DNA of 62,569 nt, the filler included, from Squatina squatina (taxonomy: Eukaryota), in the NCBI GenBank assembly GCA_031763465.1. It is 4 parts of 4 records of this genome, joined end to end, with 100 filler letters (N's around TTAATTAATTAA, not from the genome) between each part and the next. Parts side by side here need not be neighbours in the genome. Positions count along the whole stretch, not along the records: positions 49,552 to 62,569 come from JARFOE010000057.1; 3 more parts are not named here. One strand, written 5' to 3'. The notes beneath the pieces were generated by a model that was given only the letters and a program-made list of their open reading frames with translations, did not search any database and had not been told where the DNA came from. Of the stretch, positions 26,701 through 62,569 are shown piece by piece. The position numbers and the translations under genes are program-made. How positions within the stretch are numbered: the stretch's first letter is position 1; every line of letters begins with the position of its first letter.

Positions 26701-26769
26701 CACAGAACCAGCAATGTTATCCACCATGGGTGAAGCATCCAATGCGATTAGATCAAGCCTTTGTCTTAC

Positions 26770-26868
26770 CTCCATATCCTTGTTCTTCTCTTTGTTCCTG
26801 CTCGTGGAGCTTCTTCCATTACTAGAGGTTTCCCGTGCTGGGACGACTGAGATCTGCTGCAGTGGCAT
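26770..26868 (-). CDS. MARCHF1: MARCHF1 first coding exon, MPLxQIS-type isoform (whole exon 26770-26982)
   Basis: MPLQQISVVPARETSSNGRSSTSRNKEKNKDME|gtaaga; acceptor ttacag| at 26983; matches the recalled MARCHF1 isoform MPLHQISVIPARETASNGRSS. Confidence 0.9.
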
Positions 26869-29800
26869 GTCACGGTTGGGGCTATTGTTAGATATTGGAT
26901 TGGACAGATATCTTATGCTCCCACTTCCCCCAGGTAAACCATCCGCATGATTATTCACATCTTATTTCCGTTAGGTTGCATTCTGTAAATAAAATTAAAT
27001 ACACATGTATATCACACTTCTATCACACAATGAAGGCTGTGCACTAATGTCCCACATTCATTTCTCTTCCAAGTTTTAACATACCAAACATGTGGTTCAG
27101 CAAAACCTGAAACCCTGAATTCTAACCAAATTGAGTTGAACTTCACTCAAGTGAAAACTCGACCATTCTGCCGCCAGAATCGCACAGTGCATTTTGCGAG
27201 CCAATTCAATTTCTGTGGCTTCCACTAACTGTCATGGAAACAGAGGGAAACTAGGTCTCTCAAGCTCCTATTATCANNNNNNNNNNNNNNNNNNNNNNNN
27301 NNNNNNNNNNNNNNNNNNNNNNNNNNNNNNNNNNNNNNNNNNNNNNNNNNNNNNNNNNNNNNNNNNNNNNNNNNNNCAAGCACCTATTATAAAATGCTTC
27401 CATTAATGGCAAAACAACTCCCACGTTCTCAGTTGCTGCTGCTGTTCAACTGATTCCCCCTGAGTTTTCCAAGTGATTCGAGACGCAGCAGTATACTGAC
27501 TGGGTAAATAGGCAGAAGGCAGAAAGGCTTAGTGTCCTATTTTAGAAAAATCCCATCCTTCTTGAGCAGCACATCAGCCTGCTGGGTAGTTCACGCATTT
27601 AATCTGCTTAGGTCATTGTGATGAGAATGGCCCTGACTATACTAAGAAGAAGCACCAAATGACTGTGAAGGGAAAAGGAATCAAAGATAAGCCCTTCAGT
27701 ACTTATTACCTTTATATAGCCTACTGAACAGAAGCTCACTTAATAAAAATTCAAGCTGCAATTTATTACTGCAACACTGTGCCGACTGATAACTGACTGT
27801 CTGATATTTCAATTTATATGTTGTGCCCTCATTAGGTCCCTACTATTCCACAAAACTCTGAATACGTTGTTCTCTTTGCCACTGTATAACTGGTTATGCT
27901 TCTACAGGACTGGCCCTGTCAGTTTTTCCAATCCCTTGAGAAGAATCACCCTAGTATAGACAACTAAACACACAACAAAGTTAAATAAATCAAAATGTCA
28001 GCCAAGACTAAGATCTGACCGCAGGTCCTCTAGTGCGGAAACCAAATCTCTCTTGTATGGGCTATTAGTCTGCACTGATTGACTTCCTCCAGCTTTCGTT
28101 ACTTCCTTTTGGAAAGTGGCTTACCTTCAATCAGCCTATCAGACGTTGAAACTCATTATAAATTAGAATCTTTATCCCAGTTCCCTGTATCGTTAACTGC
28201 TTCCTCCTCAATCTCCGCATTACTCTCAACCCAACTTCTTCAATATCTTTTACTATATCTCGAATGATGATAAAAAGATTAGGAAAATATTCAGTGAAAT
28301 AAGAACAGCAATAAAGGGTCTTATTTCAACAGATACTTTGAAGTTCATAGTAAGAATCTGCATTAACTTGATTATTGAGTATTCAACTGAAAACACCACA
28401 GTGTAATTAAACACTTTAAGAACAATGGGGTTGGAAATCCACGGGATTGGGGAGATAGAAAGAGAGGCTGAGGTGTAAGTGCCGGGATTCGCCCTCCCGG
28501 GGCCGCTACNNNNNNNNNNNNNNNNNNNNNNNNNNNNNNNNNNNNNNNNNNNNNNNNNNNNNNNNNNNNNNNNNNNNNNNNNNNNNNNNNNNNNNNNNNN
28601 NNNNNNNNNAACATAAAGGAATTCCTCTCTTGGTTTTCATTTCGATAGAAACGTGAGACTATGGCATTGCCGCACCTACAGTTTTGTTCCATTATCTTTT
28701 ATTTCATTATCACATCCTATTTTAGCCAAACATGGCTCAGTGTTGAAACAGATAAACTCAGTCTGGCTTATCTATATCTGTTTCTGGAGCATTTATTAGG
28801 AGCAATACAAGATGATCCATTTGCTAATTTAAACACTTTGGAATTAAATTGGGAAAATAATTCAGGATCGCAAGTTGATCTTTACAACAGAATCCTTAGA
28901 TTATCAGCCCCACAGGTTTATAGCTAATTCCACATAGCTTTTTGTGATTCACTATATATTATTAATTCAATAATTGCCGGAGTCACTATCTCAATTTCTC
29001 CCCACTTTATTTGATTGGCTTTCATTTATTGTGTTGAAACTGGAGAATTAATGCTGTTCAAGGCAATTAATGCCTTGCAGGATGTGAAAAATTAATGAGA
29101 GCCCCTCACTGTGCATTGTGGAGTGCCATAAATCTCCAGCATTAGCACAAGTAATTGAAATGGTTCTTATATAGTGACATAGCTAAAGTAATCCATTTTA
29201 AATATTATGTGAAATATTCATCATTTACAGTTACGTTGTCCTTTCAAGAATGCTTCAAAATTAAGCAAAGCTCAAAAGCACAGCTCTATCGAATTTTTAA
29301 TGAAATCTCTGCCACTAAAGGTTAGATATCGCTAGATAACACAGTTGTATTCAATATATATGATTAACAAAGTCCCAGACCGAAATTAATATTGCACTGG
29401 CTGACAGACAAGATACAATATGCCCTGAGAGAGTTGCANNNNNNNNNNNNNNNNNNNNNNNNNNNNNNNNNNNNNNNNNNNNNNNNNNNNNNNNNNNNNN
29501 NNNNNNNNNNNNNNNNNNNNNNNNNNNNNNNNNNNNNNCTTCGAGCCTGCTCCGCCATTCAATATGATCATGGCTGATCCTCTAAATTCAGTACCCTGTT
29601 CCCGCTTTCTCCCCATATTCCTTGATGGGGCATGATAACGCCAGGTTTTCTTGCACCAGATGGCTTAAATCTGCATCTGGGTATCTGCTGACCCAGAGCC
29701 TGTGAGCCAGCCCTGTAATGCCAGTGACTGTTAGATTCGGCCTGTCTGTAAATCTGGGCACAGTCTGCCTCAGGGGCAGCCTGACATGCCTGATATCCTT

Positions 29801-33152: not shown

Positions 33153-33611
33153 TTAGACCTCCGAGCTGTCGCTGTTGTAGCTTTGCCCCGTGGTCACTGT
33201 CTCATTGCTGCCAGCACGTTTATCGTTCGACGACTGCTTCCCACTGGTGGAGCGGTTCCTGCGTTTCAACAGCAGGAAGATGATAGTGGCCATGCAGGCC
33301 AAGAGCAGCAGGCCCCCGGCTCCGCCCACCATGGCGAAGATGCTGCCTTCAGACTCCCTGCTGGTGGTGGGCACAAGTGGCTTCTGGTACTGCTCACCCT
33401 TGGGCAGATAGTCCTTCTGGGTGATGATGATTTTATTGGCACGGTCTAGTGCTATGTGCTGGATATTGGTGCCTCTGCTATTCTCTGCTCCAATGTCCTG
33501 GGTAACATCAGGTTCCTGTGGTGCTGATCGGCGGCTGCGACTGAATCCCACACTGTTGGAAATGCTTCCTGTGGACGACACTGAATGGTGCAGAAACTCC
33601 AAACTTCTCTT
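33153..33611 (-). CDS. FRAS1-related extracellular matrix protein (FREM2/FREM3 type), last exon, partial; FREM3 favoured by linkage to MARCHF1
   Basis: IGAENSRGTNIQHIALDR signature, furin-like RSRR, hydrophobic helix IFAMVGGAGGLLLLACMATIIFLLL, basic KRR, C-terminal DSSEV stop. Confidence 0.88.
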   Translation of the reverse strand, partial: KRSLEFLHHSVSSTGSISNSVGFSRSRRSAPQEPDVTQDIGAENSRGTNIQHIALDRANKIIITQKDYLPKGEQYQKPLVPTTSRESEGSIFAMVGGAGGLLLLACMATIIFLLLKRRNRSTSGKQSSNDKRAGSNETVTTGQSYNSDSSEV

Positions 33612-37782: not shown

Positions 37783-38286
37783 TTTTCCTTCATTATGACT
37801 CAAGCCATTCTGCTGTTCTCTCCAGAGAGTTCCCCTATTCTGTCCTACTCGAGGAAAATCAAAGTCCGATCCCACTGGGTGTTGCAGGGGCTGGCCACGG
37901 TGTGTGCTGTCCTAGGTTTGGCCATTATCAGCTGTAACAAATACCTGAACGACAAACCGCATTTTACAAGCTGGCACGGTGTGGTTGGCCTAGTGACCGT
38001 TCTGTACATTTGCCTGCAGTCTGTCGGTGGGGTGTCACTGCTGTACCCCAAACTCATGAGACAATGGTCTCTGTCCAAACTGAAAGTCTACCACGCCACC
38101 TCCGGACTGGTCGGTTACCTGCTGGGCTGCACCAGTCTGCTGCTGGGCATGTGTTCAGCATGGTTCACCGAGACCGTGACTGGTATTAGCTGGTACCTGG
38201 CAGTTTGCTGCCCAGTCCTGTTGGCATTGGTCCTCATGAACCAAATGAACAGTGCCTACTTGAAGAAAAAGAGGATGCAGCCTTGA
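37783..38286 (+). CDS. CYB561D2: Cytochrome b561 family member D2, last coding exon
   Basis: cctag|[17 protein letters not shown]...HWVLQ...WHG...[13 protein letters not shown]...KKRMQP stop; heme-ligand histidines kept; divergent from NPRL2 as in human. Confidence 0.95.
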
Positions 38287-40493
38287 ATAAACTTCCGTCC
38301 CGTCTNNNNNNNNNNNNNNNNNNNNNNNNNNNNNNNNNNNNNNNNNNNNNNNNNNNNNNNNNNNNNNNNNNNNNNNNNNNNNNNNNNNNNNNNNNNNNNN
38401 NNNNNCTCATCTGGGCAGCTAACAGGGAAGCAGCTGGGGAGAATTAAATAGCTTTCCAAAGTATTTCGTACCTCTCCCTGCCCAAGCTGGAACTACCACT
38501 GGTTGCCCCTTCCTGCAAATGCAGATGGCAGCAGAGCAGGGGGGAAGCGGGGGGGTTCACAGGGCTGGCTTTCGATCCCATTTATCTCCCCCGTTTGCTG
38601 TTGCTCCAAGGAAGCCCGGTGATACACCTGAAGTGGAGACTGCACTGGTCCCAAATGTCAGAATTGAAGGGAGAGGGCCCCACTGGGACTGGAGTGGGAC
38701 TTGAACCCACAAACCTCTGACCCCGAGACGGTACCAATACACACCAGCAATCACTCGCAATTTCTCTTAAAGGAATGAGGTGAAATCCCTGCAACTTTTG
38801 TCACAATCTTCCACTATACCGGCCGCTTACGACAAGCTTGTGCCTCACTGCACGCGTTATAACAACACATCATGGACCTACATTCAGGACCCTTTTATAA
38901 GCTAGTTTCCTGGGTCGGTTTGTGCAGCGCTGCTCAAGGCCGATACAGCTGACCAGAGACCCTCAGCCCTGACATAGCGGTGTGACGACAAGCAAGCTCT
39001 TCAGAGATGGCCCTCTCTTACCTGATGACTTTCATCGGCGAAGACATTGTGTCCGGTCACTTTACTGAAGAGTGTCACAGGAATTCCAACCTGCTGGTCA
39101 GCCACTTGTTCAAAGATATTATTGGTCCTGGTCAAACACAACAACAGACGCATTGACGGTTGACACCGGTCTGGAGGTGTGCACTGTGTGATACTAGCGT
39201 ACCGACATCACTAAAACAGATTATCTGGTCGTTATCACATTACCAAAACATAAGAACATANNNNNNNNNNNNNNNNNNNNNNNNNNNNNNNNNNNNNNNN
39301 NNNNNNNNNNNNNNNNNNNNNNNNNNNNNNNNNNNNNNNNNNNNNNNNNNNNNNNNNNNNAGAAACCAGTGCAAGTCATATTCTTGAAAATCTGATCAAT
39401 CTTACATCCCTGAATTCCTTTTGCCTAACAATAAATTCCATACAGTAGCATTTACCTTGGTTCGCTGTAATTTACTCATGAAAGAATCAAACCGCGTTTT
39501 TATATTGTCTAGTGCCCATCAACTACTGTCATTAAGAAATAACAATGAGCTTCATAGCAATGTGGGGCAATATTGATCGTTCTCTCACTCTGCAGTTTTA
39601 ACTGTCGAAAGTGTGAAAGAAAAGTCAACAGAACAGAATTAAAAATACAACGTTAGACGCAGCTTTACTGACAATTCAGAACTTTCTTCATACAACCAAT
39701 ATTTTTTTTAAAAAAACCAAACAAATGAAAGGTCAAAGTTCAGCACTGGCCTAAAATTCCACTTGGAAGGAATAAAAGGGCTATTATGGTAAATGGTAAA
39801 AACAGACTACAGAATTAGACAACTAAAAGTTCTGGTGCAGACACACATTTGTTTGGTTTAGCAATCATTGTCCCAAAGACACTTGAACTGAATTGGCAGT
39901 CCCAACAAGAGTTACACTTTATTTGAGGTGAAGCAGTCTCTCTCANNNNNNNNNNNNNNNNNNNNNNNNNNNNNNNNNNNNNNNNNNNNNNNNNNNNNNN
40001 NNNNNNNNNNNNNNNNNNNNNNNNNNNNNNNNNNNNNNNNNNNNNNNNNNNNNNNNNNNNNNNNNNNNNNNNNNNNNNNNNNNNNNNNNNNNNNNNNNNN
40101 NNNNNNNNNNNNNNNNNNNNNNNNNNNNNNNNNNNNNNNNNNNNNNNNNNNNNNNNNNNNNNNNNNNNNNNNNNNNNNNNNNNNNNNNNNNNNNNNNNNN
40201 NNNNNNNNNNNNNNNNNNNNNNNNNNNNNNNNNNNNNNNNNNNNNNNNNNNNNNNNNNNNNNNNNNNNNNNNNNNNNNNNNNNNNNNNNNNNNNNNNNNN
40301 NNNNNNNNNNNNNNNNNNNNNNNNNNNNNNNNNNNNNNNNNNNNNNNNNNNNNNNNNNNNNNNNNNNNNNNNNNNNNNNNNNNNNNNNNNNNNNNNNNNN
40401 NNNNNNNNNNNNNNNNNNNNNNNNNNNNNNNNNNNNNNNNNNNNNNNNNNNNNNNNNNNNNNNNNNNNNNNNNNNNNNNNNNNNNNNNNNNNN

Positions 40494-41397
40494 CTGGTTT
40501 TGGAGCCTCAACACTGGCTTTAGTCTCAGGCTCAATCTCACTAGTTCTATGATTGCGCTCACTGTCTTTCTTTTTCAGCTGCAGGGGCTCGTGGGTGTCG
40601 GAGAGCACCTTGTCCTCGACAGGTGGGCGCCGATCTTCTGGGGGAACAGCAACGACCTGCTCCTTGTCAGCTGTGCCGTCCGCCCCACGGGCGTCCCGGT
40701 TCCTCTTGTCCGGGCTCGGCTCCAATGAGCCCCGAGGCTTGGCCCGCACCCGCTCCTCGTAAGGCGAGTGGACGGGCCGAGCGCGGTCGTTGGAGAGGCT
40801 CCGGCGCTTCCGCCGCTCCTCCCACGGTTTGGCGGTGCCACGGTCGTTCTCCCGCTCGCTCGTCCAGCGGTCCCGACTGCGGCTCCGGACTGAAGCGGCG
40901 TAACCATCAGCGTTGTTGCGGCGGTCAAGGGCCTTGGCCGGGCTGCTCCAGTCGCCATCTGAGAAGTTCCTCTCCCGCTCATGGTACAGGGGCAGAGGCG
41001 GTGTCCTGTCACGTGCCGCCCGGGTCTCCCGCTCCAGGCTCCGGTGTCGGCCATAGCCATCCGCCAGCAGCTCGTAGTGCACCGGCAGCGGCACCGGCGG
41101 GTAAGGCTGCTGGTAACGTGCGTCCTCCACCTTGGCGAAGTCAACCCTCAGCCGCCGGTCGGGCCCCCCGAGAGGAAAGCCCCGCATCTGGGCGCAGGCG
41201 GCCTGCGCGGCGTCCAAGCTCTCGTACTGTATGTAAGCAAAGCTGTCGCCTTTAACATAGTCATTGGTGCGAATGCTGCCAAACCGGTCAAACTCCCTGG
41301 CCAGGGCAGCCAGCGAGGTCAGGGGTCCAAGCCCACCCACCCACAAGCGAGTCGTTGGGTTTGCTTTGCCGTATCCAATTTTAACCTGGTTCCTGCC
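40494..41397 (-). CDS. RBM15B: RNA-binding motif protein 15B, RRM3 and following low-complexity region (SPOC domain lost in gap)
   Basis: KIGYGKANPTTRLWVGGLG...FAYIQYESLDAAQAACAQMRGFPLGGPDRRLRVDFAK; open frame; next to MANF. Confidence 0.9.
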
Positions 41398-41673
41398 NNN
41401 NNNNNNNNNNNNNNNNNNNNNNNNNNNNNNNNNNNNNNNNNNNNNNNNNNNNNNNNNNNNNNNNNNNNNNNNNNNNNNNNNNNNNNNNNNNNNNNNNNNN
41501 NNNNNNNNNNNNNNNNNNNNNNNNNNNNNNNNNNNNNNNNNNNNNNNNNNNNNNNNNNNNNNNNNNNNNNNNNNNNNNNNNNNNNNNNNNNNNNNNNNNN
41601 NNNNNNNNNNNNNNNNNNNNNNNNNNNNNNNNNNNNNNNNNNNNNNNNNNNNNNNNNNNNNNNNNNNNNNNNN

Positions 41674-42105
41674 TAGCCCATAATAATCTAGCGACCGCTC
41701 CCGCTCCCTCGGCAGCGGTACTGCCTCGATGGGATAATTGGCGTGTCTCGTCCTCTGCTCTCGGAGGGTGCAGGCCCCCGGCGACAAAGAGCGCTGCCGA
41801 TACTGGTACCCGGCGTGGATGGGCACGTAGTTGACCTCGGGTGGGGTGCAGCTCCTCCGCTTGGGGTACACGGGCTCGATTTTGAGGGGCCGGTCGTAGA
41901 GCACCAGCCGGCCCTTGGCGTGCCGGGCCTCCTTGGCGTCCTCATGGTGCCGGAAGTGCACATAGGCCAGCCGGCCCCCGTCGGGGGTGTGGGTGGCGTT
42001 GACACTGACCTCGCCAAACTTCTTGAACTCGTGGAAGAGGCCGTCCTCCACCGCCTCGTCGGTCAGCTGCGAGCCCAGGTTGCTGACCACCAGGGTCTTG
42101 TACTC
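41674..42105 (-). CDS. RBM15B: RBM15B, RRM1 region; N-terminus absent
   Basis: EYKTLVVSNLGSQL...LFHEFKKFGEVSV...RLAYVHFRH...RLVLYDRPLKIEPVY; similarity ends at about 42105-42108. Confidence 0.88.
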
Positions 42106-42384
42106 CAGGCAGAAAGGAGAAAGCAAACATAATTTCTAATGCCGTTACAATGGATCGTGTGCTTAGTAAACAGAACCTCGGTGGGGGATGGGGAAGAAGT
42201 CAACTGACAGGCTGTGGCCAGTTGAGTAAGTGGTATTATTTTATACGCGCTGGATATCGTACTTAGGTCTTGATAACAAACTCTCTCAATGTGGAAAAAT
42301 CAATGCGAAAGACCAGAAATAGCTCCAAGGCATCAGATGTCAGCAGGGTTCTCCACAGGATCAGTTGCGTCCTACAGCCAAATA

Positions 42385-42578
42385 CCTGCATCCGTCTTTT
42401 GGGTGAGACATTAAACCAAGGTCCCCGTCTGCCCTCTCAGGTAGACGTGCAAGATCCTATCGCCACTATTTTGAAGGAGAGCAGCGGAGTTATCCCCGGT
42501 GTCCTCGGCCACTATTTTTCCCTCCATCACCATCACTCAAATACACATTATCTGGTCATTATCACATTGCTGTTTGTG
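42385..42578 (+). mobile_element. SINE fragment
   Basis: ccgtctttt gggtgagacattaaaccaaggtcccc...gagttatccccggtgtcct...ttatctggtcattatcacattgctgtttgtg; reverse-complement match to 57703-57900. Confidence 0.75.
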
Positions 42579-42885
42579 NNNNNNNNNNNNNNNNNNNNNN
42601 NNNNNNNNNNNNNNNNNNNNNNNNNNNNNNNNNNNNNNNNNNNNNNNNNNNNNNNNNNNNNNNNNNNNNNNNNNNNNNAGCATACCAGTTTTTACAAGCG
42701 CTTCCATGCCCTCCCAACTCTTTCCCCCAAAACACCACAAGCAGCACTTCCCAAGAATCAGTTTATTTTATAGCAAATCTCAAGACATTAAAGTCCCCTT
42801 TTTATTAATAAATACAAAAAAGGCAAGTGAAAAACCAATGGAAATGTACAATAACGAGTTGGTGGCAGGCCACACTCAGGCTTCA

Positions 42886-43070
42886 CTAGAGCTCGGTCCG
42901 CGATTGGGCAGCCAGGGGGGCATACTTCGGCATCAGGTCAGTGATTTTGCGGATGAAGTCAGATTTCTCCGCACAGCCTTTACATGACTCTCCCCACTGG
43001 TCCAGGATCTTCTTTAGCTCTTTGACTCGCAATTTCTTCAGATCAACCGTGCTCAGGTCCACCTGCTTGT
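42886..43070 (-). CDS. MANF: Mesencephalic astrocyte-derived neurotrophic factor, last exon
   Basis: cgcag|(D)[60 protein letters not shown] stop; CKGC motif; KDEL-like RTEL; AATAAA about 80 and 120 nt downstream; not in the ORF track. Confidence 0.96.
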
Positions 43071-43354
43071 CTGCGATTTGGTACAGAGGAAAGAAAGATC
43101 AGACACATGGTGAATGGCAACATTCTCAGTCCCCTTCCCCAATATTTCCCTCTCACCACTACAATTCTCCATCCAAGTAGACAAACAATCTTCTGTGTAC
43201 ACTAGACCTTACTAGGGAGGCGCTCGACCCCACTCTGCTAGAACATATGCACGCNNNNNNNNNNNNNNNNNNNNNNNNNNNNNNNNNNNNNNNNNNNNNN
43301 NNNNNNNNNNNNNNNNNNNNNNNNNNNNNNNNNNNNNNNNNNNNNNNNNNNNNN

Positions 43355-49451: not shown

Positions 49452-49551
49452 NNNNNNNNNNNNNNNNNNNNNNNNNNNNNNNNNNNNNNNNNNNNTTAAT
49501 TAATTAANNNNNNNNNNNNNNNNNNNNNNNNNNNNNNNNNNNNNNNNNNNN
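49452..49551. other. Artificial scaffold spacer N44-TTAATTAATTAA-N44
   Basis: TTAATTAATTAA at 49496-49507. Confidence 0.97.
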
Positions 49552-49729
49552 ATGATGCTGCTGGACGTTTTACCACATTACGACACGATATAAATACAAG
49601 TTGTTGTTGTTCAAATTATAGTTCAGATTTTCGAATACTCATCCTGAGCATCACTCTAACTCTAGCCTCCCTTGCAGCATATCCACAAGAATATGAACAG
49701 AACAGACTTTGGCCAAGTAAAGTTGAAAG

Positions 49730-50100
49730 AACTTTCATTTATATCGTACCTTTCATGACTGCAGGACGTTCCAAAGGCCATTGAGGTACTTTTGAAGACT
49801 CGTTACTGTTGTATTTGAGGGAAACACAAAGGCTAATTTGCACACAGCATGACCCCACAAACTGCGATGTGACGATGTTGTTTTAGGGATAAAGGTCTTC
49901 TTCAAATTGTGCCATGGTTTTTTTCCCACGCACCTGAGCGGGAAGGTGGGGGCACAGTTTAATGATTGATCTGAAAGATGGCGCCTCCAACGGTGCAGCA
50001 CTGCCTCGGCACTGCACTAAGTGTCAGCCTAGATTATGTGCTCTAGCCTCTGGACTTGAACACACAACTTTATGACTCGGAGGTAAGCATGCTACCACAA
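49730..50100 (-). mobile_element. tRNA-derived SINE, near full length
   Basis: B-box-like remnant (gacttgaacacaca on the plus strand), core gcagcactgcctcggcactgcactaagtgtcagcctagattatgtgctc, LINE-derived tail. Confidence 0.8.
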
Positions 50101-50342
50101 TATCAAGAACAAAATCCCTTAAAATTTCTTGTTTCACAGGTTATAGTAAATTTGGCCACAGTTGCTCATAAAATTCAAGGGATTTGGTTCATTAAAAATG
50201 TAAATATATTGCTTTGAAGTGTGTCCCATGATTTTATATGGCAATTATAAAACAATCCTGAAAATTAGGGAACAGTGTCCTTTACATGTCAAACTTGAAT
50301 GCATGTATTGCTGATTTTCTGATTTTTGTTCCTCTATATTAG

Positions 50343-50889
50343 ATTAAACTTGAGCCCAGATCAGCAGTGAAAAGAAAACCAGAAAGTATTAACTGTTCAC
50401 TGACAGTTAAGAAACAACACCTAAAAAGGATCATTTCAAACTGGGAATCTGAGCATGCTTACAGCTGCCTTCCTGTATACAATTCGGAAGCACCTTTCTA
50501 TGGTGCAGAAGCAACCTCCCACATCAACTCTCATTGTGGACAGGAGACGTTCGCCAGCTCACCTGAGCCCAACTCGGTGCCGGAGGAGAGTTCAATAATG
50601 GAATCCTCCCCCATGATGACTCACAGCACTGAGACAGAGACTTCACACAGCCCCTCAGTTGTCTCAACTGTACCTGTTCNNNNNNNNNNAGCCCCTCACC
50701 TCAACTCCCTCAATGGGACGCTCCCCTACGGCTGAGATCCGTGCAGCACAGAGTTACTCTCCTCTTCCTCAGTTGGGTATAGACGAAATTACGCGTGATG
50801 AGAAGATCAAGCGGCTGAAGGAGATTCTGAAGGAGAAGGAGGCCGCGCTGGAGGCGATACGGAAGAAAATGGTTTTGGCACCTTTATAA
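50343..50889 (+). CDS. LRIF1: LRIF1-like protein, last exon (10-N gap at 50680-50689 shifts the apparent frame)
   Basis: ttag|IKLEPRSAVKRK...; ends GIDEITRDEKIKRLKEILKEKEAALEAIRKKMVLAPL stop, matching the recalled LRIF1 coiled coil RDEKIRRLKQVLREKEAALEEMRKKM; LRIF1 lies near CEPT1 in mammals. Confidence 0.78.
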
Positions 50890-52094
50890 TGTTCTCAATC
50901 AAAATTAAGAGTCTGTGTCCGTGCTGTGCTATTTATCTGATGAACTGGATACTCCCCCTTCTGTGTGATCTCAGTCTCTCTTGGTAAATTTAAGATGACA
51001 AATATTTAAAGTTTGTTTTTTCTGCTGTATGGTACAACAGCATGAAGAGGAGTAAGAATAAGTAGATACCCGTGAAATTGTTTTCAGAGTAGGTAAGTGC
51101 AAAAAATGGGACACCTGGCGCTGGTCCTCCCATTTTAAACTGACTGCCATAAATTGAATTGTGGAATCTGCCAACATCTATGTTGGCAGGACCTCAGAAT
51201 TTTTTTAAAAAGAGTGGAGTCAATTTTGTTCTGATTTACACCTGGGCAACACATACTCCTCAGGTGCTGCACAGCAGAAAAGACCCGATTTCCCTGAACT
51301 CTGCCCCTTTTGCATTGCCCATGGATTTTCAAGGAGGGGATACAGGGTTTGAACCTACAGCAGACACAAGCTCGCTACCCTATTCTATAGTAATGAGTCA
51401 GAAGTAGCATTACCACAGCACCTGCCTCATTTTTCTCAGTCTCCACTTGGCAGAGGCCCAAATTGAACTGCATCCTCAGTTAGTGAACTTTACTCCTGCC
51501 AAGGAGTGGGCCTAGACCAGAGGAAGGTCAAGCCTAGAATAATGACCTGAACCCAGGAACACAGGCAGATTCGGGTCAGCTCTCGTGGAAAGCACTTTGG
51601 ATGCATTCTGTCTGCACTTATGCAGAGGAGGCGAGGAAAGTTGTCTTTCATTTCATTTATGCGGAATAATCTAAATTTATAATGTGTGCCCAGTGGCGAA
51701 CATCAGGGCGGTGAAATTCCCTTACGTCCCTGCGGACGGCTGGCGCCTAAAGATTTGAGTTGAGTAGCGCCTCTGTTTGGAGGCGCTACAACATTCCTAA
51801 ATTCAGCATTTTTTTTTGTAGGCGAGATCGTCGGGGCGAGTACAGCAACTTTAGGCACAGGTAGGTAGGCGCCCGCGCGTGTCCTGGAACCGTGGCGCTA
51901 AGAAGGATCAGCGGATGCAGCAGGTCATCGAAGAGCTAAGTAGAGCAGCAGATTGCTCTTTANNNNNNNNNNNNNNNNNNNNNNNNNNNNNNNNNNNNNN
52001 NNNNNNNNNNNNNNNNNNNNNNNNNNNNNNNNNNNNNNNNNNNNNNNNNNNNNNNNNNNNNNTACTGAAATCCTTGCACCTCATATTTTTACAG

Positions 52095-52781
52095 GCTGTG
52101 AAACAACTGCTGAATACCCTTCCAAGAGGCTGTGCAAGTAGCCCTCCATTTCCTGAGGATAGAGACTTATTGTTAAAAGCAGGAATCTATGCTGATGTCC
52201 GAGTTCACCTTTATAGAATCCCCTTGACTGGCATTGCTGATACTTCAGGATGTTGGTTGGAAAGTCCTATAAAATATATTCCACAACTCTCTAAGGAGCC
52301 TGATCTGGTGGATTTAGAAGAATGTCCAGAACTCTCTCGGAAGCCTGGGCCGGTAGAACTGGAGGAATGCCCAGAGCTCATCAGGGAGCATGACGCAACA
52401 GAATTGGAAAAGTGTCTGGAGCTTTTCACGGATGCCGGGCTAGCAGATTTGGAAGAATGCCCAGGGGTCTCGAGGGTGCCTGGCCCAGTCGCATCCAAAG
52501 AATGTCCAAAACTCTCCAAAGAACCTGGCCCAGTGATAAAGGAAGAACGCACAGCTATCTCTAGAGTGCTTAGCCCAGCAGAATTGGAGGGGGGCCCAGC
52601 TATCTCAAAGGATTCCAGCCCACTCGCATTGGAAGAATGTCACGATTATTCCAAAAAACGTATCCCAGTAGCACTGGAAGAAGGTGTAGATGCCGACAGA
52701 GTACCGAGCCCAACAGAACTGGTGGACTGTCCTTCTGAATCTGAAGCAGGATACCATAGTAAATACAGAAGGAAGAGAAAG
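52095..52781 (+). CDS. LRIF1-like internal exon with putative HP1-binding motif and 10 x 15-aa repeats
   Basis: ttacag|AVKQLL...KAGIYADVRVHLYRIP...RRKRK|gtattt; 687 bp, phase 0/0, no stops; DVRVHLYRIP resembles LRIF1 DLRVCLTRIP. Confidence 0.65.
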
Positions 52782-53284
52782 GTATTTAATTTTACTGAGA
52801 GCATGGTGATGATGTGTTTAACACAGTGCTGCAGGAAAAGCTGAGGTGGAGGAAACTGAAGCTAAAAATTGGGAAGGCAAATCAAACCATGTTTCACTCT
52901 GCATGAATTGCAAAAAAGTTTGAGCTTAATGCCTACTCTTGATCGTGTGGTAGTGAAGTATCATTTCAATACCAATGAATGGGGGAGTCACTCAGAACGG
53001 AAAGGATGGGGAATTGATAGTGTTGGAATTAGTGCTTGTCGGGACTTTGATTCCCATCTAGCTCTGAAAGGGGAAGGGGAGAATGACATTCAGAAGATCA
53101 ATGCTNNNNNNNNNNNNNNNNNNNNNNNNNNNNNNNNNNNNNNNNNNNNNNNNNNNNNNNNNNNNNNNNNNNNNNNNNNNNNNNNNNNNNNNNNNNNNNN
53201 NNNNNAGGTTCGGCACAACATCGTGGGCCGAAGGGCCTGTTATGTGCTGTATTTTCTATGTTCTATGTTCTATGTTCTAATTGA

Positions 53285-54172
53285 GGCCAGCAGGCCCAAC
53301 AGATGCTCACGGACCCTTCGTCTTTCTTTCCCCAGCGTGATGAAGGGTGGTTGGAGGTGGGGAAGCCATGGTCCAGGTCCTGGAGGAATCAGATCTACAG
53401 CATATGCACCTAGAGACCTGACAAGCTGCAGATTCTTTAGCGTGCCCTTCTTTTTGGGCACCTTTCCCAGGGCTGGGTCTTTGACGACTTGACAGAGAAG
53501 GAACTCCAACTCAAGCACCTCCTTCTCCAACTGCTCAATCCAGGTCTTCCATCTCTTGGTCAACCCTCTCGCATACTCCTGACCAAAGAGATGGATGTGA
53601 GTCTTGCCCACATCCCAGCATGGCCTCAAGGAGAGGATGTTCCCACTGCTTCCATCTCCAGTCAGCACAGAACCAATGAAACGAATACTGAACCGCTTAT
53701 GCTCCAACAGCAAGTTGTTAAAATGTGAGATCCGAGTACGGCACCTGCTGCATGAAAGCCGCCAGAACGAGGGAGATGTACACCTGGAAAATGTAAAGAC
53801 AGTCAATTCTGGACCTTCCTCCTCCAGACTTCATGTGAGCGAAGGCGCTGGAGTCGGGATGGAGATTTTGCCAGATGTCCACCAAGTTGAAGGGCCCGAC
53901 TAGGTCCCTCAACTTCCTCATTGTTGCCATACTGCGTGGGAGACTGGAGGGGTGCCTCGCCTCGAGGGTGCAGTTGAAATTGCCCCCCCCAAGGATAATG
54001 CACTTGCTGGCACTGATGGAGCCTAAAAGAGCAGACACTTCTTCAAAGAAGCAAGCTTACTGCCTGGAGAGCATACATGCTCATTAGGTGGAGCGGAATG
54101 ACTCCCAGGCAAACAGCGAGATGGAGCAGCTGGACTTTATTGCGACGACCAAGCCAACCAACCAGAAATTCC
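53285..54172 (-). mobile_element. Tx1/L1-clade LINE, degenerate endonuclease region
   Basis: IILGGGNFNCTLE, LVDIWQNLHPDS, RSRIDCLYI, WWD-like PCWDVGKTHIHLFGQEY; frameshifted. Confidence 0.85.
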
Positions 54173-55579
54173 NNNNNNNNNNNNNNNNNNNNNNNNNNNN
54201 NNNNNNNNNNNNNNNNNNNNNNNNNNNNNNNNNNNNNNNNNNNNNNNNNNNNNNNNNNNNNNNNNNNNNNNNCCCGAGAGTCAATATAGGCCAGCGAGCA
54301 CAGGGGTGTTGGGTGAACGGAATTTGGAGCGAGTTGGGACATGGGCAGCGGAGTCAATTCAAGAAAATGGAGGACAGTTCCAGTGCGGTATGGCCAGAAT
54401 GGTGGGGAGGAGGTCGCTTTAACAACCGCACTGGAGTAGCAACAGAATCCAGGCAAGGAGAAGCCGAAGACATCACATTTTTGTGGCTCACAGCGAAGGC
54501 CAGTGAAAGTGCGGAATAAAGAGAAGGGCACACTGAGCTCAGCCTGACTCTGATTATTGAAAAAAAACAGTGTGGGAAGTTTAAAAACAACTGACGCAAC
54601 CAGGCCCTCAGGGCTGAATCTGATGAATTCTGACTGAGTAAATGGGGTCACCAAGTGGGAAGATCAAGACACAATTGGCAATATCGAGTCATTCAATGCT
54701 GGCAAGCCTCCCTGTGACCAGTTGACAGACATTTCTGAATTCCGCTGTTTAACTTTTCACGTTCTATTGTTTATTCCTTTTAAAATAAAGTCTTTCATTG
54801 TTTAATTGAGGCACTGTGCAGCTTGACTAGACCACATAAGACAGATATCAATGTCACGGTCATGTAATTATTATTAATAATTGTGCCAATTCTTTGTTTT
54901 GAAACGTTGTTATTGCAAATGCCTGCTGTTTTGACAGTGCCCTCCCGTGACGCGGTGAGTTGGGGAAACACATGNNNNNNNNNNNNNNNNNNNNNNNNNN
55001 NNNNNNNNNNNNNNNNNNNNNNNNNNNNNNNNNNNNNNNNNNNNNNNNNNNNNNNNNNNNNNNNNNNNNNNNNNCATACAGAGTCACTGTCTACGTACTG
55101 TCTCACACTGTACAGTCTGCATACAGTAACCACACCCCACCCCCATCCCCGGCCTATTAGCTGCTTGACAATGGGCGACAACCAACTTTTACACCTGAGT
55201 GTCCGCCATTGATTTACCCATGAAGGTCATGCTGGTCTCAGTTATTACCTGGAGTCCCCACTGGGTGATGAACCAGGGACGTGAACTCTGGCTGATTTTT
55301 TGAGTCACCAATGGAAGAGGAATGGGGCCGTGTGCAGGGAGGGCTCTGAGCTTAATTGTAACAACCTGGCTTGTGTTTCGTTGTCTCAGAATGGGCTGAA
55401 GTTGCAGCGCGGGGTCCTCCCTGCTTTGGACACCTGGGCCTGTTTGCCAACCCTCGCCATGGGGGGGGGAGCCATTTTAATGTGGTATGTAATCCTACGC
55501 CAATCGTGGGCCTTAACCCCAAGACACTGAGCGTTCCCTTGGTGAGTCTGACGTTGTGCTTTGCTTTTAATCTCTACAG

Positions 55580-55727
55580 GCCCACACACTGAACCACTTC
55601 TGGATGCTGTACCCTCTGCTCTGCCTTGTTGCCCTGCCCCAGTGGGTAGTGGTTGCTGAGACTCTCTGTGGTTCCGAGCTGGTCGATACGCTACAGTTCG
55701 TATGTGGTGATCGGGGTTTTTATTTCA
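55580..55727 (+). CDS. Insulin-like growth factor family exon: signal peptide plus B domain (probable IGF3-type paralogue)
   Basis: ctacag|[49 protein letters not shown]|gtaagt; 148 bp, phase 0 to 1 as in IGF1/IGF2; both B-domain cysteines and GFYF present. Confidence 0.93.
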
Positions 55728-55932
55728 GTAAGTTCTGGTTAACACCTCTTAATTTAAACATGTGGTTTCCGTTTAAACCCCGCCTTATGTTCATTTAACT
55801 TGATGTGTACAGTTCTACAGGCTACAGGAGAANNNNNNNNNNNNNNNNNNNNNNNNNNNNNNNNNNNNNNNNNNNNNNNNNNNNNNNNNNNNNNNNNNNN
55901 NNNNNNNNNNNNNNNNNNNNNNNNNNNNNNNN

Positions 55933-57602
55933 CTCCTGCTCTGTAAACAACCGCTCCTCCTCCCCCGCTCTGTAAACAGCAGCTACTCCTCACGCTCTGT
56001 AAACAGTCGCTCCTCCACCCCCACTCTGTAAATGCCACTCCTCCTCTCCCCGCTCTGTAAACAGCCCCTCCTGCTCTCCCCGCTCTGTAAACAGCCGCTC
56101 CACCATGCCTGCTCTGTAAACAGCAGCTCCTCCTCACGCTCTGTAGTCAGTCGCTCCTCCTCTCCCCCGCTCTGCAAACAGCCGCTCCTCCTCCCCAGCT
56201 CTGAAAACAGTCGCTCCCCCTCTCCCCTGCTCTGTGAGCAACCGCTCCTCCTCCCATGCTCTGTAAACAGCTGCTCCTCCTCCCCAGCTCTGTAAACAGC
56301 TGCGTTCCGCCCCCTCCGTAAATAGCCGCTCCTCCTCCTCGCTCTGTAAACAGCCGCACTTGCTCCTCCACCCTTTACACAGCCGCTCCTCCTCTCCCAC
56401 TCGGTAAACTGCTGCTCCTCCCCTGCTCTGTAAAGAGCCACTCTCTTCCGGATCTGTAAACAGCCCCTCCTCCTCTCCCACTCTGTAAACAGCCGCTCTT
56501 CCTCTCCCACTCTGCAAACAGCTGCTCCTCCTCCCCCACTCTTTACACAGCCGCTCCTCCTCCCCCACTCTTTACACAGCCGCTCCTCCTCCCCCGCTCT
56601 TTACACAGCCGCTCCTCCTCCCCCACTCTTTACACAGCCGCTCCTCCTCTCCCACTCTTTACACAGTTACGCCTCCTCCCCCACTCTTTACAAAGCCGCT
56701 CCTTCTCTCCTGCTCTTTACACAGCCGCTCCTCCTCTCCCGCTCTTTACACAGTTACTCCTCCTCCCCCACTCTTTACACAGTTACTCCTCCTCTCCCGC
56801 TCTTTACACAGCCGCTCCTTGTCCCTGCCGTTTACAGAGCCGCTCCTCCTACCTCCCCCCTCCGCCATTTACACAGCCGTTCCTCCTCCCCCGCCCTTTA
56901 CACAGCCACTCCTCCTCCCCGCTCGGTAAACAGCCGCTCCTCCTCGACCGCCCTTTATACAGCCGCTCCTCCTCTCCAGCTCTGTAAGGAGTCGCTCCTC
57001 CTCCCCAGCGCTGTAAACAGCCACTTGTCCTCCTCTGTAAACAGTCGCTCCTCCACCTCCGCTCTGAAAACAGCCGCTCCTCCTCACCCGCTTTGTAAAT
57101 GCCGCTCCTCCTCTCCCTCGCTCTGTAAACAGCCGCTCCTCCTCCCCAGCTCTGAAAACAGCAGCTCCTCCTCCCCACTCTTTACACAGCTGCTCCTCCC
57201 CTCCTGCTCTGTAAACAATCGCTCCTCCTCCCCCGCTCTGTAAACAGCTGCTCCTCCCCTCCTGCTCCATAAACAGCCGCTCCTCCTCCCCAGCTCTGTA
57301 AACAGCCGCTCTTCACCCCCTCTGTAAACAGTCGCTGCACCTCCCCTGCTCTGTAAACAGCAACTCATCCTCCCCCGCTCTGTAAACAGCCGCTCCTCCT
57401 CCTCTGAAAACAGCAGCTCCTCCTCCCCACTCGACACAGCCGCTCGTCCTCTCCTGCTCTGTAAACAGCTGCTCCTCCTCTCTCGCTCTGTAAACAACCG
57501 CTCCTCCTCTCCCGCTCTGTAAACAGCCACTCCTCCTCTTCCCCAGCTCTGTAAACAGCCGCTACTCCTCCCCCGCTCTTTACACAGTTACTCCTCCTCA
57601 CC
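55933..57602. repeat. Minisatellite, unit about 27 bp, consensus GCTCTGTAAACAGCCGCTCCTCCTCCCC, roughly 60 copies
   Basis: Visible tandem array filling a whole contig; central sub-array (about 56540-56900) has the TTTACACAG variant. Confidence 0.97.
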
Positions 57603-57702
57603 NNNNNNNNNNNNNNNNNNNNNNNNNNNNNNNNNNNNNNNNNNNNNNNNNNNNNNNNNNNNNNNNNNNNNNNNNNNNNNNNNNNNNNNNNNNNNNNNNN
57701 NN

Positions 57703-58020
57703 CACAAAGCAAGGTCCCACAAATTGCAATTAAACTGTTCTGTGTGATGCTGGTGGAGAATTAATATTGACCAGGACACCTGGGAGATCTCCTCTGCTCT
57801 TCTGTGAATAGTGCCATGGGATTTTTTTACTTTCATCTAAAAAGGGCAGATGGGACTTCGGTTTAACATCGCACCAAAAAGACGACACCTTAGACAGTGC
57901 AGCACTCCTTCAGTATTGCACTGAAGTGTCAACCTAGCTTATGTGCTCAAGTTTCTGGAATGGGGCTTGAACCCACGAACTTCTGACTCAGGAGGCGAGA
58001 GTGCTACCATTGAGCTGGCT
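57703..58020 (-). mobile_element. tRNA-derived SINE
   Basis: gggcttgaacccacgaacttctgactcaggaggcgagagtgctacc tRNA-like head on the minus strand plus conserved core. Confidence 0.85.
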
Positions 58021-59541
58021 AAAAGCATAACTATAGCCAACCAATCTCAACACTTTCCTGAAAGGTAAGTACACATGCCTCACTGCAGTGCCAAAGAAAA
58101 TGGTTGATAGAACCCACAAGCTTGCTACCATGTAGGAGCTGGATTCATTCTCATTCACAAGAAATGTACACTCTGGTGGTAAAACCAGTAAACGAAAAAA
58201 ATGATTGGCCATGGTTTGGCAGCAGGAATATAGGAAGAGGTGGGTGCAGAAAGATACACAGTAGGGAGTATATTCATAATAAAAAAGCCTTCCATCCACC
58301 ATCAAGCATTGAAATTCAGTGAAGTTCAAAATTTAAGCTGTTTCAAGGAATATTCAGGATATGGCTCAATAATAGTCTTAACCATGAATACATAAGAGGA
58401 AATACCCAGGTGAATGAATTTGAACTAAAATGTACAAACGGTGGAAGACCTCATAATTGGTACCCCTATATTTATTCCAGCTGAATGCCCAGGCACAGAG
58501 ACATGAAACTGCTCCAACTGATCCTCAGCTCATTGTCCACCCCACTCCCAACCACCCCTCTGCAAGCAATGAGCAAAAGTATTGCCATTACATGGTGAAA
58601 ATTCTTTTTGCAGTTAGGAATCTTAAATAAAATATATGGGGAAATTTCATATGATTACTTAAAGCTAAGGGAATTATAGGCTTTAAGTCCATCAACTTCT
58701 TTAAAATAATCCAACACAATGCAATAGAAATATCACTTAAGGGTCTGATACAAAGTCACCTANNNNNNNNNNNNNNNNNNNNNNNNNNNNNNNNNNNNNN
58801 NNNNNNNNNNNNNNNNNNNNNNNNNNNNNNNNNNNNNNNNNNNNNNNNNNNNNNNNNNNNNNAGCGCCACATCGGACGGTGAAAAGTACCAGAATTTAGT
58901 CCACCAAGTGTTCCATTATCTATCATTCTGCTGATGTATCAGTTTTGCTTCTGTGTTATTTCTGTGTCTTAATACAAGAATGATTAGTTTTAGCCTGAAC
59001 TATATGGTTTGCCAGTGTTTGACTTTCTATCGATATCGATCAGGAATACACTGTTCACCTGTACTGTTTCCAGTGCGCACCCCAACAGAGGGCAGGCTGA
59101 CTGTCCGAGATACTTTGGTCATAGGAAGCGCTTGCTGCCCTGTGGATCTTGAATTGAGCAGGAGTATAAAATATCGGGAGGTAGTCCAGATCCTAATATC
59201 CATCAGTGCTCACATCATACCATCTGTCCCAAATCTTTTTGAAAGGAACCAGCAGTGCCCGTGAGTTCGTGTTAAGGGGAATCTATTCCACATATCTACT
59301 GTTTGGTCCAGATTAAGATTCATCAATNNNNNNNNNNCAGCCTCTTGACTTTTTATTCTGCCCTTGTTCTGAAGGTGCTGATTCTTGTGTGAGTGCCTGG
59401 CCTAGTGGCTGTTCTGATGTATGAGGTGACAGTGAGTGGTGTTGGTGGCGATGATGCTGTGTCCAGGTTGGGTCACTGAGTAGCTGTCGGGAACATTGAC
59501 CACGCTGTCATTTTTTGCTCTACCTTGCTTTATTTGTACAG

Positions 59542-59641
59542 ACAAAAGCTGACTGATGATTACTGTAAGCAGTTTACTGGAATCTTCCAACAATGGGAGA
59601 AAGACATTCAAAAGGCCAAGGACCAAGAAGAGAAAATAGAA
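59542..59641 (+). CDS. SYCP3-like (Cor1/Xlr) protein, internal exon
   Basis: tacag|(R)QKLTDDYCKQFTGIFQQWEKDIQKAKDQEEKIE|gtaagt; 100 bp; aligns with recalled SYCP3 [34 protein letters not shown]. Confidence 0.9.
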
Positions 59642-60007
59642 GTAAGTGTCCAGACATTATCTTGTATAATGTTATTTTGTCTTCTGTTTAACCTACCAAT
59701 CTGTATGTGCGCAGGATTTCTTCAGGATGTTACTTAGGACTGAACAAAGCATGAGTTTATCGTGACTGGATAAAATAATGANNNNNNNNNNNNNNNNNNN
59801 NNNNNNNNNNNNNNNNNNNNNNNNNNNNNNNNNNNNNNNNNNNNNNNNNNNNNNNNNNNNNNNNNNNNNNNNNNNNNNNNNCTGGGTGTGACACTGTGGG
59901 CAGTCCCAGAGCTGGGTGTGACACGCTGCTTGAAAAGAAAGGGAGGAGGACCATTGAGCGGAGATAAACTGGAAAAAGTGGCCTGTTTCCATTTGTTTCT
60001 TCTGCAG

Positions 60008-60106
60008 AACCTGTTTAGGCAGCAACAGAAGCTTTTCCAGCAGATGAGAGTGGTCCAAGGGCAAAGGCTGAAGAGCATCAAGCAGCTGTTTGACCAGTTC
60101 CTAAAG
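60008..60106 (+). CDS. SYCP3-like protein, next exon
   Basis: ctgcag|[33 protein letters not shown]|gtaaac; 99 bp; in phase with the previous exon. Confidence 0.92.
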
Positions 60107-60569
60107 GTAAACCGTGAAAAGGATTGGTGACTGAGAGATATTACTCAGGGCCAAAAATTCGGGCATTTAGCACCCAATACAGGGGGGAAAATGGTAGCTG
60201 CCACACTTTGATCCGCTGCCAGTGGGTCCCGTGGCGACTACCATTTTTGGCTGGGCGATAGCGCTACCGTTGACCACGCTCGCAAAATTGATGCAGACTG
60301 TGACATCAGTGAGTGTGTATCGCTCACGTGACACCCGATCTGTGATTTTCAAGTTTGCCGCTCCAGTTATCGACATGCCTTAACTGTGACCANNNNNNNN
60401 NNNNNNNNNNNNNNNNNNNNNNNNNNNNNNNNNNNNNNNNNNNNNNNNNNNNNNNNNNNNNNNNNNNNNNNNNNNNNNNNNNNNNNNNNNNNCTTCATCG
60501 GCTGCAAAGCGCTTTGGGACGTTCAGCCATTGTGAAAGGTGCTATTTAAATGCAAGTCTTTCTTTCTAT

Positions 60570-61310
60570 GACTTGAAAGATAAATATTCCAGGCTATAAT
60601 GTCCTTAGAAAGGGAAATTGGAAAAGGAGGAGTACCAATATTGAAAAGGGACACGAATACAGTATTAGAAAGAAGGGAAATCAGTAAGGGTGAGTAGTTA
60701 GTAGAAATACTATGGATAGAATTGAGGAACAGAAAAGGATGCAAGACTTTGCTGGGAATTGTTTATAGACCTCCAGATAGCTGTGATAAAGTAATGGGAT
60801 ACATAAACCCAGAGTTCAGAGAAGCTTGTTGCAAAAACTGAGTCATTATCATGGGAGACTTCAATTTTCACACAGACTGGGGGTAGCAGAACAGCTCGAG
60901 GCCCAAAGGTAGCAAATCTCTTTAGTGTATTTGGGACAGTCTTCTGGAACAATATGTTCTTGAACCAACAAGAGAACAGGCCATCTTATATTTAGTAATG
61001 AGTAATGAGCTTAAATTAGTTAATAATCTAATGGTAAGGGGACACCTAGCTAAAAGTGACCATAATATGATAGAATTCGATGTTAGGTTTGAGAGGGAGA
61101 AGGGTGAGTCACGAACCAAGGTTTTAAATTTGGGTGCAGCTGACTTTGGAGGGATGAGGCAGGAATTGACCACAATAGACTGGGCAGAACTATTAACAGA
61201 TAAAACTACAGATGAATGGTGGGAGGTGTTCAAAAAAAGTATTTGGTAAACTTCAAGACCTGTACATACTCCTAAAGGGAAAGAGCTCTCTGTATGTAAT
61301 TAAACAACCT
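60570..61310 (+). mobile_element. CR1 LINE ORF2 endonuclease/linker fragment
   Basis: EILWIELRNRKG, IVYRPPDS, IIMGDFNF, EQYVLEPTRE, SDHNMIEF; stops present. Confidence 0.9.
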
Positions 61311-61469
61311 NNNNNNNNNNNNNNNNNNNNNNNNNNNNNNNNNNNNNNNNNNNNNNNNNNNNNNNNNNNNNNNNNNNNNNNNNNNNNNNNNNNNNNNNNN
61401 NNNNNNNNNNGAGGGGTCACGGGTTGTGTGGGTGGAGGGTGGCAGCTGCCCACAATACACAGTACGTAC

Positions 61470-61628
61470 CACTAATTTATTGGTTATTTTTGCAGAGACA
61501 AAGCCAAAAGCGAGAATGTAGAGGCAGGGGTTATTCTCAAACAGCCGGCTGGTGGATTTCTTGTAGATCATCAATGCCAGTGTTATAACTGCCCCTATGT
61601 GGAGGAATGGTGACAGCACACTTGTACC
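61470..61628 (-). CDS. CEPT1: Choline/ethanolamine phosphotransferase 1, internal exon
   Basis: cacag|[53 protein letters not shown]|gtacgt; SPFLHIG and [12 protein letters not shown] are CEPT1-type (CHPT1 has SPGLHIG, GCVFAKVSQKLV). Confidence 0.92.
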
Positions 61629-62327
61629 CTGTGAAACATAATGACATGTGTGATTAACTCGCTGTCAGTCACCGTACCCCCATAATACAATCATTGTGTA
61701 AAGAGCTGATACCAGTGCTCACTGCCCAGGATCTGTTCCAGTAAGACGCCCCACTCAGTACATCCAGATACCCTGAGGCCATGGACAGAACCCACCACCG
61801 GGACACTGCCTGCCGTGAGAAACTGTCCACCCGTTGGGGCAGTGGGTCACAACTGGGGAATGGGCCGCAATCGATGTGGAGTCAGGGAGAATTGTGAATA
61901 ATCCACTCTCAACTTTCCATTAACTACGTTTCCTGCATTACTTGAATTTCCCACTCCTTACGGCCATCTCTCACTGCTCCTGCACATCTGGAAATCACAC
62001 ACTCTCACTCTGCAACATGGCCAGGGACAGACAGCAGCACTTTAACCCTCGCCCCGCCAACCACCACCCTTTCAGGAGCTGATGCAAGGATCAACATTGC
62101 AGGCTTGTAACAGTCCTCCTACTGGGAATATGAGACATCAGAACCGGTTTGCAGGTACATCTGATCTTGCTTTCTGGTTGATCCATCTGGTTAATATCTC
62201 TCTCTTCTCTCCTGCTCTTCTCCCTTTTCCTGTCTCCTCCCATCATTGATCCCATCCCCTCCTCTGCTTGATTCCTTGTCTCTCTCTGTCTCTCCCTGGT
62301 CGATATCTCACACTCACGGTTAGAATG

Positions 62328-62354
62328 CTCTCTCTCTCTCTCTCTCTCTCTCTC
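62328..62354. repeat. (TC)n microsatellite
   Basis: Pure TC run. Confidence 0.9.
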
Positions 62355-62569
62355 ACAGATACCTCATCGATCTCAACTAGCTAATTCTCGTCACCACCAG
62401 CCGATAAACACAGTCTTTAATAGACACAATCTTAACTCTCACAGGCCGTCTAAACTGCACTATCTCCCTATGGCTTGGACAAGCCGCTGGAGTAATAATG
62501 GAGCAACACAGGAGGGGGTGAGCCAGATTTATGAGTTTAACATTAAACAGATGAACCTGGAGCTCTAAC

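Follow-up and report, generated by a model that had tools for sequence, protein, structure and literature searches.

The SYCP3 gene of sharks appears, from its sequence, to be related to the mammalian gene of the same name as an ancient twin, not as an orthologue. Two of its exons lie in a 62,569-nt stretch of the Squatina squatina genome (GenBank assembly GCA_031763465.1), hereafter the window, and share the last block of that stretch (49552-62569) with exons of LRIF1, of an insulin-like growth factor (IGF) and of the CEPT1/CHPT1 family. An earlier note on this DNA had described IGF and SYCP3-like exons on the plus strand, with a CEPT1-type exon converging on them in one spacer-bounded block; the coordinates, strands and Pfam and PDB matches bear this out. 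The note had also taken the block for a retained duplicate of the IGF1-SYCP3-CHPT1 block, a proposal that is strengthened by a third IGF clade and a second SYCP3 clade but loses its claim that both SYCP3 copies were kept. We lean towards the reading that LRIF1 > IGF3 > SYCP3B >< CEPT1 is the sister of IGF1...SYCP3A >< CHPT1, the two being duplication twins that underwent reciprocal loss.

The two SYCP3 exons of the window are consecutive and encode part of the coiled-coil core (Table 1). They also match SYCP3 chains in the PDB, and no other SYCP3 exons were found in the window. Both are identical to Heterodontus francisci SYCP3 (P0012; 33/33 residues each, 66/66 together), and they match bamboo shark, skates and rays at 65/66 and chimaera at 63/66. 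Eleven chondrichthyan-named entries fall within 63-66 of the 66 residues, with proteins of the clade that contains mammalian SYCP3 (clade A) at 47/66 or below. These matches by themselves mark the DNA as that of a cartilaginous fish, probably a shark. Such conservation among chondrichthyans argues for a working gene. A pseudogene was considered and rejected given the intact splice sites and the 63/66 identity to chimaera. Judged by these identities, the exons are orthologues of the SYCP3 that databases hold for sharks, rays and chimaera, and the gene has already been annotated.

To place the gene among vertebrate SYCP3 proteins we searched with the full-length bamboo-shark protein and took the best 120 of 685 matches (lowest score 246 bits). 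Unrooted trees were built from 50 and 25 of 125 proteins, leaving out isoforms and many birds and squamates, and a fast tree from all 125. In the 50- and 25-protein trees, SYCP3 splits into two clades with support of 100/100. Clade A holds mammals, sauropsids, amphibians, lungfish, coelacanth, tarpon, otophysan teleosts and the sterlet protein named 'SYCP3'. The window gene falls in clade B, together with ten chondrichthyan species, two bichirs, gar, bowfin and the sterlet and paddlefish proteins named 'SYCP3-like'. The window SYCP3 does not take the place that the species tree would give it beside the SYCP3 of tetrapods, coelacanth and teleosts, and a single clade of all ray-finned fish SYCP3 is rejected (p-AU 3e-9). 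Identity between the two sterlet proteins, which lie on records 15.95 and 70.03 Mb long, is 52%; sterlet B shows 69% identity to bamboo shark and sterlet A 68% to coelacanth. Among the matches listed, sterlet alone has both copies. The rejection of a single ray-finned clade, together with the presence of both genes in sterlet, places the SYCP3 duplication before the split of ray-finned and lobe-finned fish on these trees. Four eel and salmonid proteins (P0067, P0068, P0112 and P0113) carry clade-B signatures on long branches and probably belong to clade B, which may survive beside clade A in some teleosts.

All 15 chondrichthyan-named entries among the best 120 of 685 matches, from 10 species, belong to clade B, and the clade-A motifs occur in none of them. 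Plain SYCP3 is the name given to 13 of these entries, whereas in sterlet it is the B protein that carries the suffix '-like'. Experimental work on the cloudy catshark points the same way. Sycp3 primers have been used for RT-PCR on catshark testis (PMC13637641). The reverse primer, Sycp3_R, matches window positions 60017-60037 at 20 of 21 bases (0 of 100 shuffles did so), in a stretch conserved in clades A and B alike; the peptide encoded by the forward primer has chondrichthyan proteins as its 11 best matches, all ahead of any clade-A entry. By these matches the catshark primers fit clade B. Sycp1, Sycp2 and Sycp3 have also been reported in the catshark testis proteome, with no clade given (PMC13052469). 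Clade A is likely to be absent from sharks. The lineage, then, does not seem to keep both SYCP3 copies, and the window gene does not appear to be the 'second' meiotic axis gene of the earlier note, being of the type that sharks carry as plain SYCP3.

The IGF exon belongs to a third IGF clade. Of 152 matches, 31 that are not mammal-like entered a tree with the window exon; we dropped 89 without a full B-C-A region, 28 with mammal-type motifs and 2 tagged constructs, and removed 2 more as mammal-like or engineered. The IGF tree puts the exon inside a clade of 7 entries (97/90) that is sister (94/93) to the IGF1-type entries. A search of protein representatives returned a full-length relative, P0132, which is 85% identical over the exon and has the complete prepro-IGF layout (B-C-A-D-E, six cysteines). 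The window holds the signal-peptide end and B domain only, and neither a motif scan nor tblastn found A-domain, first or E-domain IGF exons in it. IGF2 was rejected as an identity, the tree placing the exon away from entries with an IGF2 E-peptide; P0132 also lacks IGF2_C, a weak test given that IGF2_C was matched in only 6 of 28 entries. A search at near lengths returned six IGF2-like fragments only and was uninformative, and the ESM Atlas clusters for P0132 were generic insulin/IGF. On its tree position we assign the exon as IGF3-type, not IGF1, and date the IGF1/IGF3 split as older than sharks. The igf3 genes of teleosts and Xenopus form a third clade beside IGF1 in the same pattern (PMC5176323). 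IGF3 has been described as teleost-specific and gonad-specific (PMC4992253), and a shark member contradicts the first of these.

The transferase exon scores 84 bits to CEPT1 (8gyw); for a pair of CHPT1 chains the scores are 74 and 62 bits. It has the Phe of CEPT1 at a position where both CHPT1 chains have Gly, and its neighbour LRIF1, whose last exon matches positions 707-743 of 745 of Pfam LRIF1 (E 1.1e-13), also favours CEPT1. We regard the CEPT1 call as moderately firm.

The arrangement of these genes resembles that of human 12q23, where we take CHPT1 to lie tail-to-tail with SYCP3, and IGF1 to be on the SYCP3 strand; the window has the same orientation, IGF > SYCP3 >< transferase, so far as the assumed human strands are correct. 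An interval on cattle chromosome 5 lists CHPT1, SYCP3, GNPTAB, DRAM1, WASHC3, NUP37, PARPBP, PMCH and IGF1 (PMC7764440), and chicken chromosome 1 has the same gene set (PMC4463845). An interval on cattle chromosome 3 lists CEPT1, DRAM2 and LRIF1, and neither an IGF nor SYCP3 appears in that list (PMC12075139). The two amniote blocks, CHPT1-SYCP3-GNPTAB-DRAM1-IGF1 and CEPT1-DRAM2-LRIF1, are linked by the paired families CHPT1/CEPT1 and DRAM1/DRAM2, to which the shark exon adds IGF1/IGF3. The shark block combines members of both lists, with matching orientation and with the alternative member of each family, which makes random scaffolding improbable. Most likely there is a real shark chromosome behind it, which may be that of a guide genome. 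Human LRIF1 presumably lies on the opposite side of CEPT1 from the arrangement in the window, which implies inversions. Neither DRAM2 nor any other gene was found among the 239 open fragments of the block (tandem-repeat contig left out); five weak Pfam matches among these fragments (E 0.014-0.049) were taken as chance.

Several points weigh against the sister-block reading. Every gene-to-gene link crosses a join and no contig holds two of the genes, and one LRIF1-like exon (52095-52781) is misplaced, following the LRIF1 stop. The CEPT1/CHPT1 call depends on one exon, with 45/53 identities to 8gyw against 43/53 to 8ero and 36/53 to 9uet. A forced grouping of the shark IGF with the IGF1-type entries is not rejected (p-AU 0.11), and the ray-finned members of the third IGF clade are ones we take to be Igf3. 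In the fast 125-protein tree the eel and salmonid entries lie outside the core B group. The SYCP3 trees have no outgroup, there being no jawless or invertebrate sequence among the matches listed, and by themselves they allow a duplication in stem bony fish. Finally, the clade-A proteins listed span 246-269 bits and so reach down to the 246-bit floor of the best 120 of 685.

This last point bears on the alternative that survives best, in which the block is indeed the duplicated sister but neither SYCP3 gene was lost in sharks, the clade-A copy lying next to CHPT1. Since clade-A scores reach the floor, a diverged shark A could lie among the 565 other matches; sterlet demonstrates that both copies can be retained, and two entries for the B protein of the skate Rhinoraja are named 'SYCP3-like'. 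We nevertheless consider this unlikely, because of the 95 listed entries that bear the N-terminal motif of clade A none has a chondrichthyan name, though the A proteins of coelacanth, lungfish and sterlet, which evolve slowly, are listed, because the chondrichthyan B entries mostly bear the unqualified name, and because it is B that serves as Sycp3 in the catshark work (PMC13637641).

A second alternative is that SYCP3 was duplicated in stem bony fish only, so that the shark gene represents the ancestor before it divided into A and B, and clade A evolved fast thereafter. Unrooted trees permit a root on the chondrichthyan branch, and no shark A appears among the matches listed. The internal branch between A and B (~0.8), however, far exceeds the chondrichthyan stem (0.23-0.3). 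Clade A would moreover need to have ended up next to CHPT1, whose twin CEPT1 adjoins B, and close to IGF1, whose twin is IGF3; the split of these two IGF genes is older than sharks. We hold this alternative to be quite unlikely.

Less likely again is that the exons are real but come from unlinked loci, the gene order being an artefact of scaffolding. The earlier note had warned that the order depends on the scaffolder, and the warning stands: ten 100-N joins, all unsized, separate the LRIF1 exon from the CEPT1-type exon, and since every gene-to-gene link crosses such a join, all of these links come from the scaffolder. The majority of exons of each of the four genes are absent from the window, and the displaced LRIF1-like exon also speaks for such an artefact. 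Against it, cattle have LRIF1 close to CEPT1, and both cattle and chicken have the twins of the IGF, SYCP3 and CEPT1 genes close together. The SYCP3 exons, for their part, follow each other correctly across a join. Elsewhere in the window, MARCHF-type exons are ordered over three contigs and MANF precedes RBM15-type exons on one strand, in what we take to be the expected orders. That the block is instead the shark IGF1-SYCP3-CHPT1 locus itself, diverged and with LRIF1 nearby, is very improbable: the 43/53 identity to one CHPT1 chain and the p-AU of 0.11 would suit it, but the best IGF tree puts the exon in a separate clade, the SYCP3 is of clade B with sterlet A located elsewhere, and the transferase exon scores higher to CEPT1 and shares its Phe.

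Table 1. Features of the last block of the window and the spacer that precedes it.
Feature	Position	Strand	Details
Scaffold spacer, N44-TTAATTAATTAA-N44	49452..49551		start of the block with all four genes
LRIF1 last coding exon	50343..50889	+	N10 gap 50680-50689; stop 50887-50889; AG acceptor
Open exon, 687 nt, 229 aa	52095..52781	+	AG/GT ends, whole codons
IGF3-type exon, signal-peptide end and B domain	55580..55727	+	AG/GT ends; Pfam Insulin E 3e-7
29-bp tandem repeat, ~58 copies; takes up a whole contig, with the IGF exon before it and SYCP3 after	55938..57599
SYCP3 clade-B exon, coiled-coil core	59542..59641	+	Pfam Cor1 37-68, E 9.2e-10
Consecutive SYCP3 clade-B exon, continuing the reading frame of the one above	60008..60106	+	Pfam Cor1 70-102, E 1e-10
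CEPT1-type exon (CEPT1/CHPT1 family), convergent with the SYCP3 exons	61470..61628	-	AG/GT ends

The window is made up of short contigs, mostly with 100-N joins, in four blocks set apart by TTAATTAATTAA spacers. Within the last block, a short gap links only the two parts of the final LRIF1 exon. Canonical splice sites are present where expected on the LRIF1, IGF, SYCP3 and CEPT1-type exons. The open exon at 52095-52781 encodes short Cys/Pro/Glu repeats of the LEECP type; its sole Pfam match is to LRIF1 positions 531-559 of 745 (E 0.13), and its 229-residue translation has no match in the ESM Atlas. As it corresponds to an earlier part of LRIF1 but follows the LRIF1 stop, either the local order is imperfect or LRIF1 is duplicated, and the exon is probably an internal one from further upstream in LRIF1 that has been misordered, or else belongs to another gene of LRIF1 type. 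Broken frames without a Pfam match occur at 53273-54056 (minus strand) and 60698-61246 (plus strand); we take them to resemble endonuclease regions of LINE retrotransposons.

The other blocks hold further genes. The third block contains, at 37783-43098, a cytochrome b561 exon on the plus strand, with RBM15-type RRM exons and the last exon of MANF/ARMET on the minus strand; CYB561D2, RBM15B and MANF are presumably all human 3p21 genes. Exons of a MARCHF1/8-type E3 ligase extend over three contigs at 18285-26961 on the minus strand, in what we assume to be their expected order, and the RINGv domain matches 2d8s (E 2e-33). An open frame at 33156-33611 (minus strand) has a Ser-rich stretch and one transmembrane helix, and is a putative exon of a single-pass membrane protein.

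The block was most likely born in an early vertebrate genome duplication, probably the second round. Reciprocal loss would then have left A in lobe-finned fish and tetrapods, B in cartilaginous fish and both in sturgeons. IGF3 would most likely act as a secreted gonadal paracrine growth factor. The possibly gonadal growth factor of the earlier note agrees with IGF3 of teleosts, gonad-biased expression being reported for carp (PMC5176323). The adjacency of IGF3 and SYCP3B is most simply read as an inherited relic and not as a sign of co-regulation.

In sharks, SYCP3B most likely performs the usual function of SYCP3. Human SYCP3 forms an antiparallel tetramer that binds DNA via two basic patches, and its fibres assemble by way of an N-terminal motif and the last six residues (PMC4102245). 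The bamboo-shark B protein aligns without gaps to the 165-residue human core. The exons for the basic patches are missing from the window; among 14 full-length clade-B relatives, the BP2 basic patch (KKKR/KRKR) is present in all and the RKR patch in 10, the pattern failing on four entries. The self-assembly motifs Nt6 and Ct6 (PMC4102245) occur in B in a clade-specific form, with an N-terminal DVxxML and a terminal M/L where clade A has EVxxML and a terminal F/Y. We would predict that SYCP3B forms an antiparallel coiled-coil tetramer, holds DNA by its N-terminal basic patches and builds the meiotic chromosome axis by polymerising via the motifs at its two ends. Where A and B both survive, they may or may not co-assemble. 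One tentative scenario, which we think has only a small chance of being right, is that jawed vertebrates inherited two axis proteins whose head-to-tail assembly motifs co-diverged, so that each may polymerise only with itself. Axes would then be built of B in sharks and probably in bichirs and holosteans, and of A in tetrapods and most teleosts; sturgeons, and perhaps eels and salmonids, would have kept both for >400 million years, with the job split by sex, stage or partner (SYCP2 vs SYCP2L). The pairing of the twins with SYCP2 and SYCP2L is an assumption of ours.

SYCP3 serves as a one-to-one marker of meiosis across vertebrates. If the shark gene is a twin, comparisons across fish, and the antibodies and primers used in them, need care. 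The twins also offer a natural experiment, since either one seems to suffice by itself in some lineage and sterlet has the two together. They differ at the motifs that drive fibre assembly, and co-assembly versus exclusion is directly testable. The locus further places IGF3 in cartilaginous fish. The surprise is limited, given that databases already contain the individual genes and that genome duplications are known to be followed by reciprocal loss. In the open full-text literature, subscription papers not being covered, we found no separation of two vertebrate SYCP3 clades and no link of igf3 or sycp3 to cept1, though the subscription literature may describe IGF3 synteny. The supplements of PMC12318234 and PMC8302630 gave no match to the gene names (one zip archive covered to 4.0 million characters). 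The accessible parts of PMC4132317, PMC12702675, PMC12318234 and PMC11703093 hold nothing bearing on the two-clade split, and PMC9918221 yielded no matching passage. What seems to be new is the twin status of shark SYCP3, the single genes being already in databases.

Compared with known systems, SYCP3B shares with mammalian SYCP3 (clade A; 4cpc, 6dd8) the Cor1 domain, the gap-free core, the basic patches and a conserved C-terminal tail, but it falls in a separate clade, is about 59% identical and differs at both assembly motifs. Mammalian SYCP3 neighbours CHPT1 and IGF1, whereas the window gene neighbours CEPT1 and IGF3. The same clade B includes the database SYCP3 of sharks, rays, chimaera, bichirs, gar and bowfin, mostly annotated as ordinary SYCP3, and the 'SYCP3-like' proteins of sterlet and paddlefish. 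The shark IGF resembles teleost and Xenopus Igf3 in its clade, sister to IGF1, and in a similar signal peptide; unlike them, its type has a B domain that starts as in IGF1/2, from which the ray-finned P0133, P0208 and P0274 differ. Two further IGF3-clade proteins, P0135 and P0136, have an IGF1/2-like B-domain start and are intermediate between the shark and ray-finned types; they probably come from lobe-finned fish or tetrapods. The cattle CEPT1 block differs from the window in listing neither an IGF nor SYCP3 in its accessible part (PMC12075139), and no DRAM2 exon was found among the 239 open fragments of the shark block. In the wider pattern of hidden paralogy, ohnologues are reciprocally lost and the survivors are then named as orthologues. 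The shark block would be alike in that two lineages each kept a different twin, and particular in that the gene encodes a core meiotic axis protein and both twins are still present in a sturgeon.

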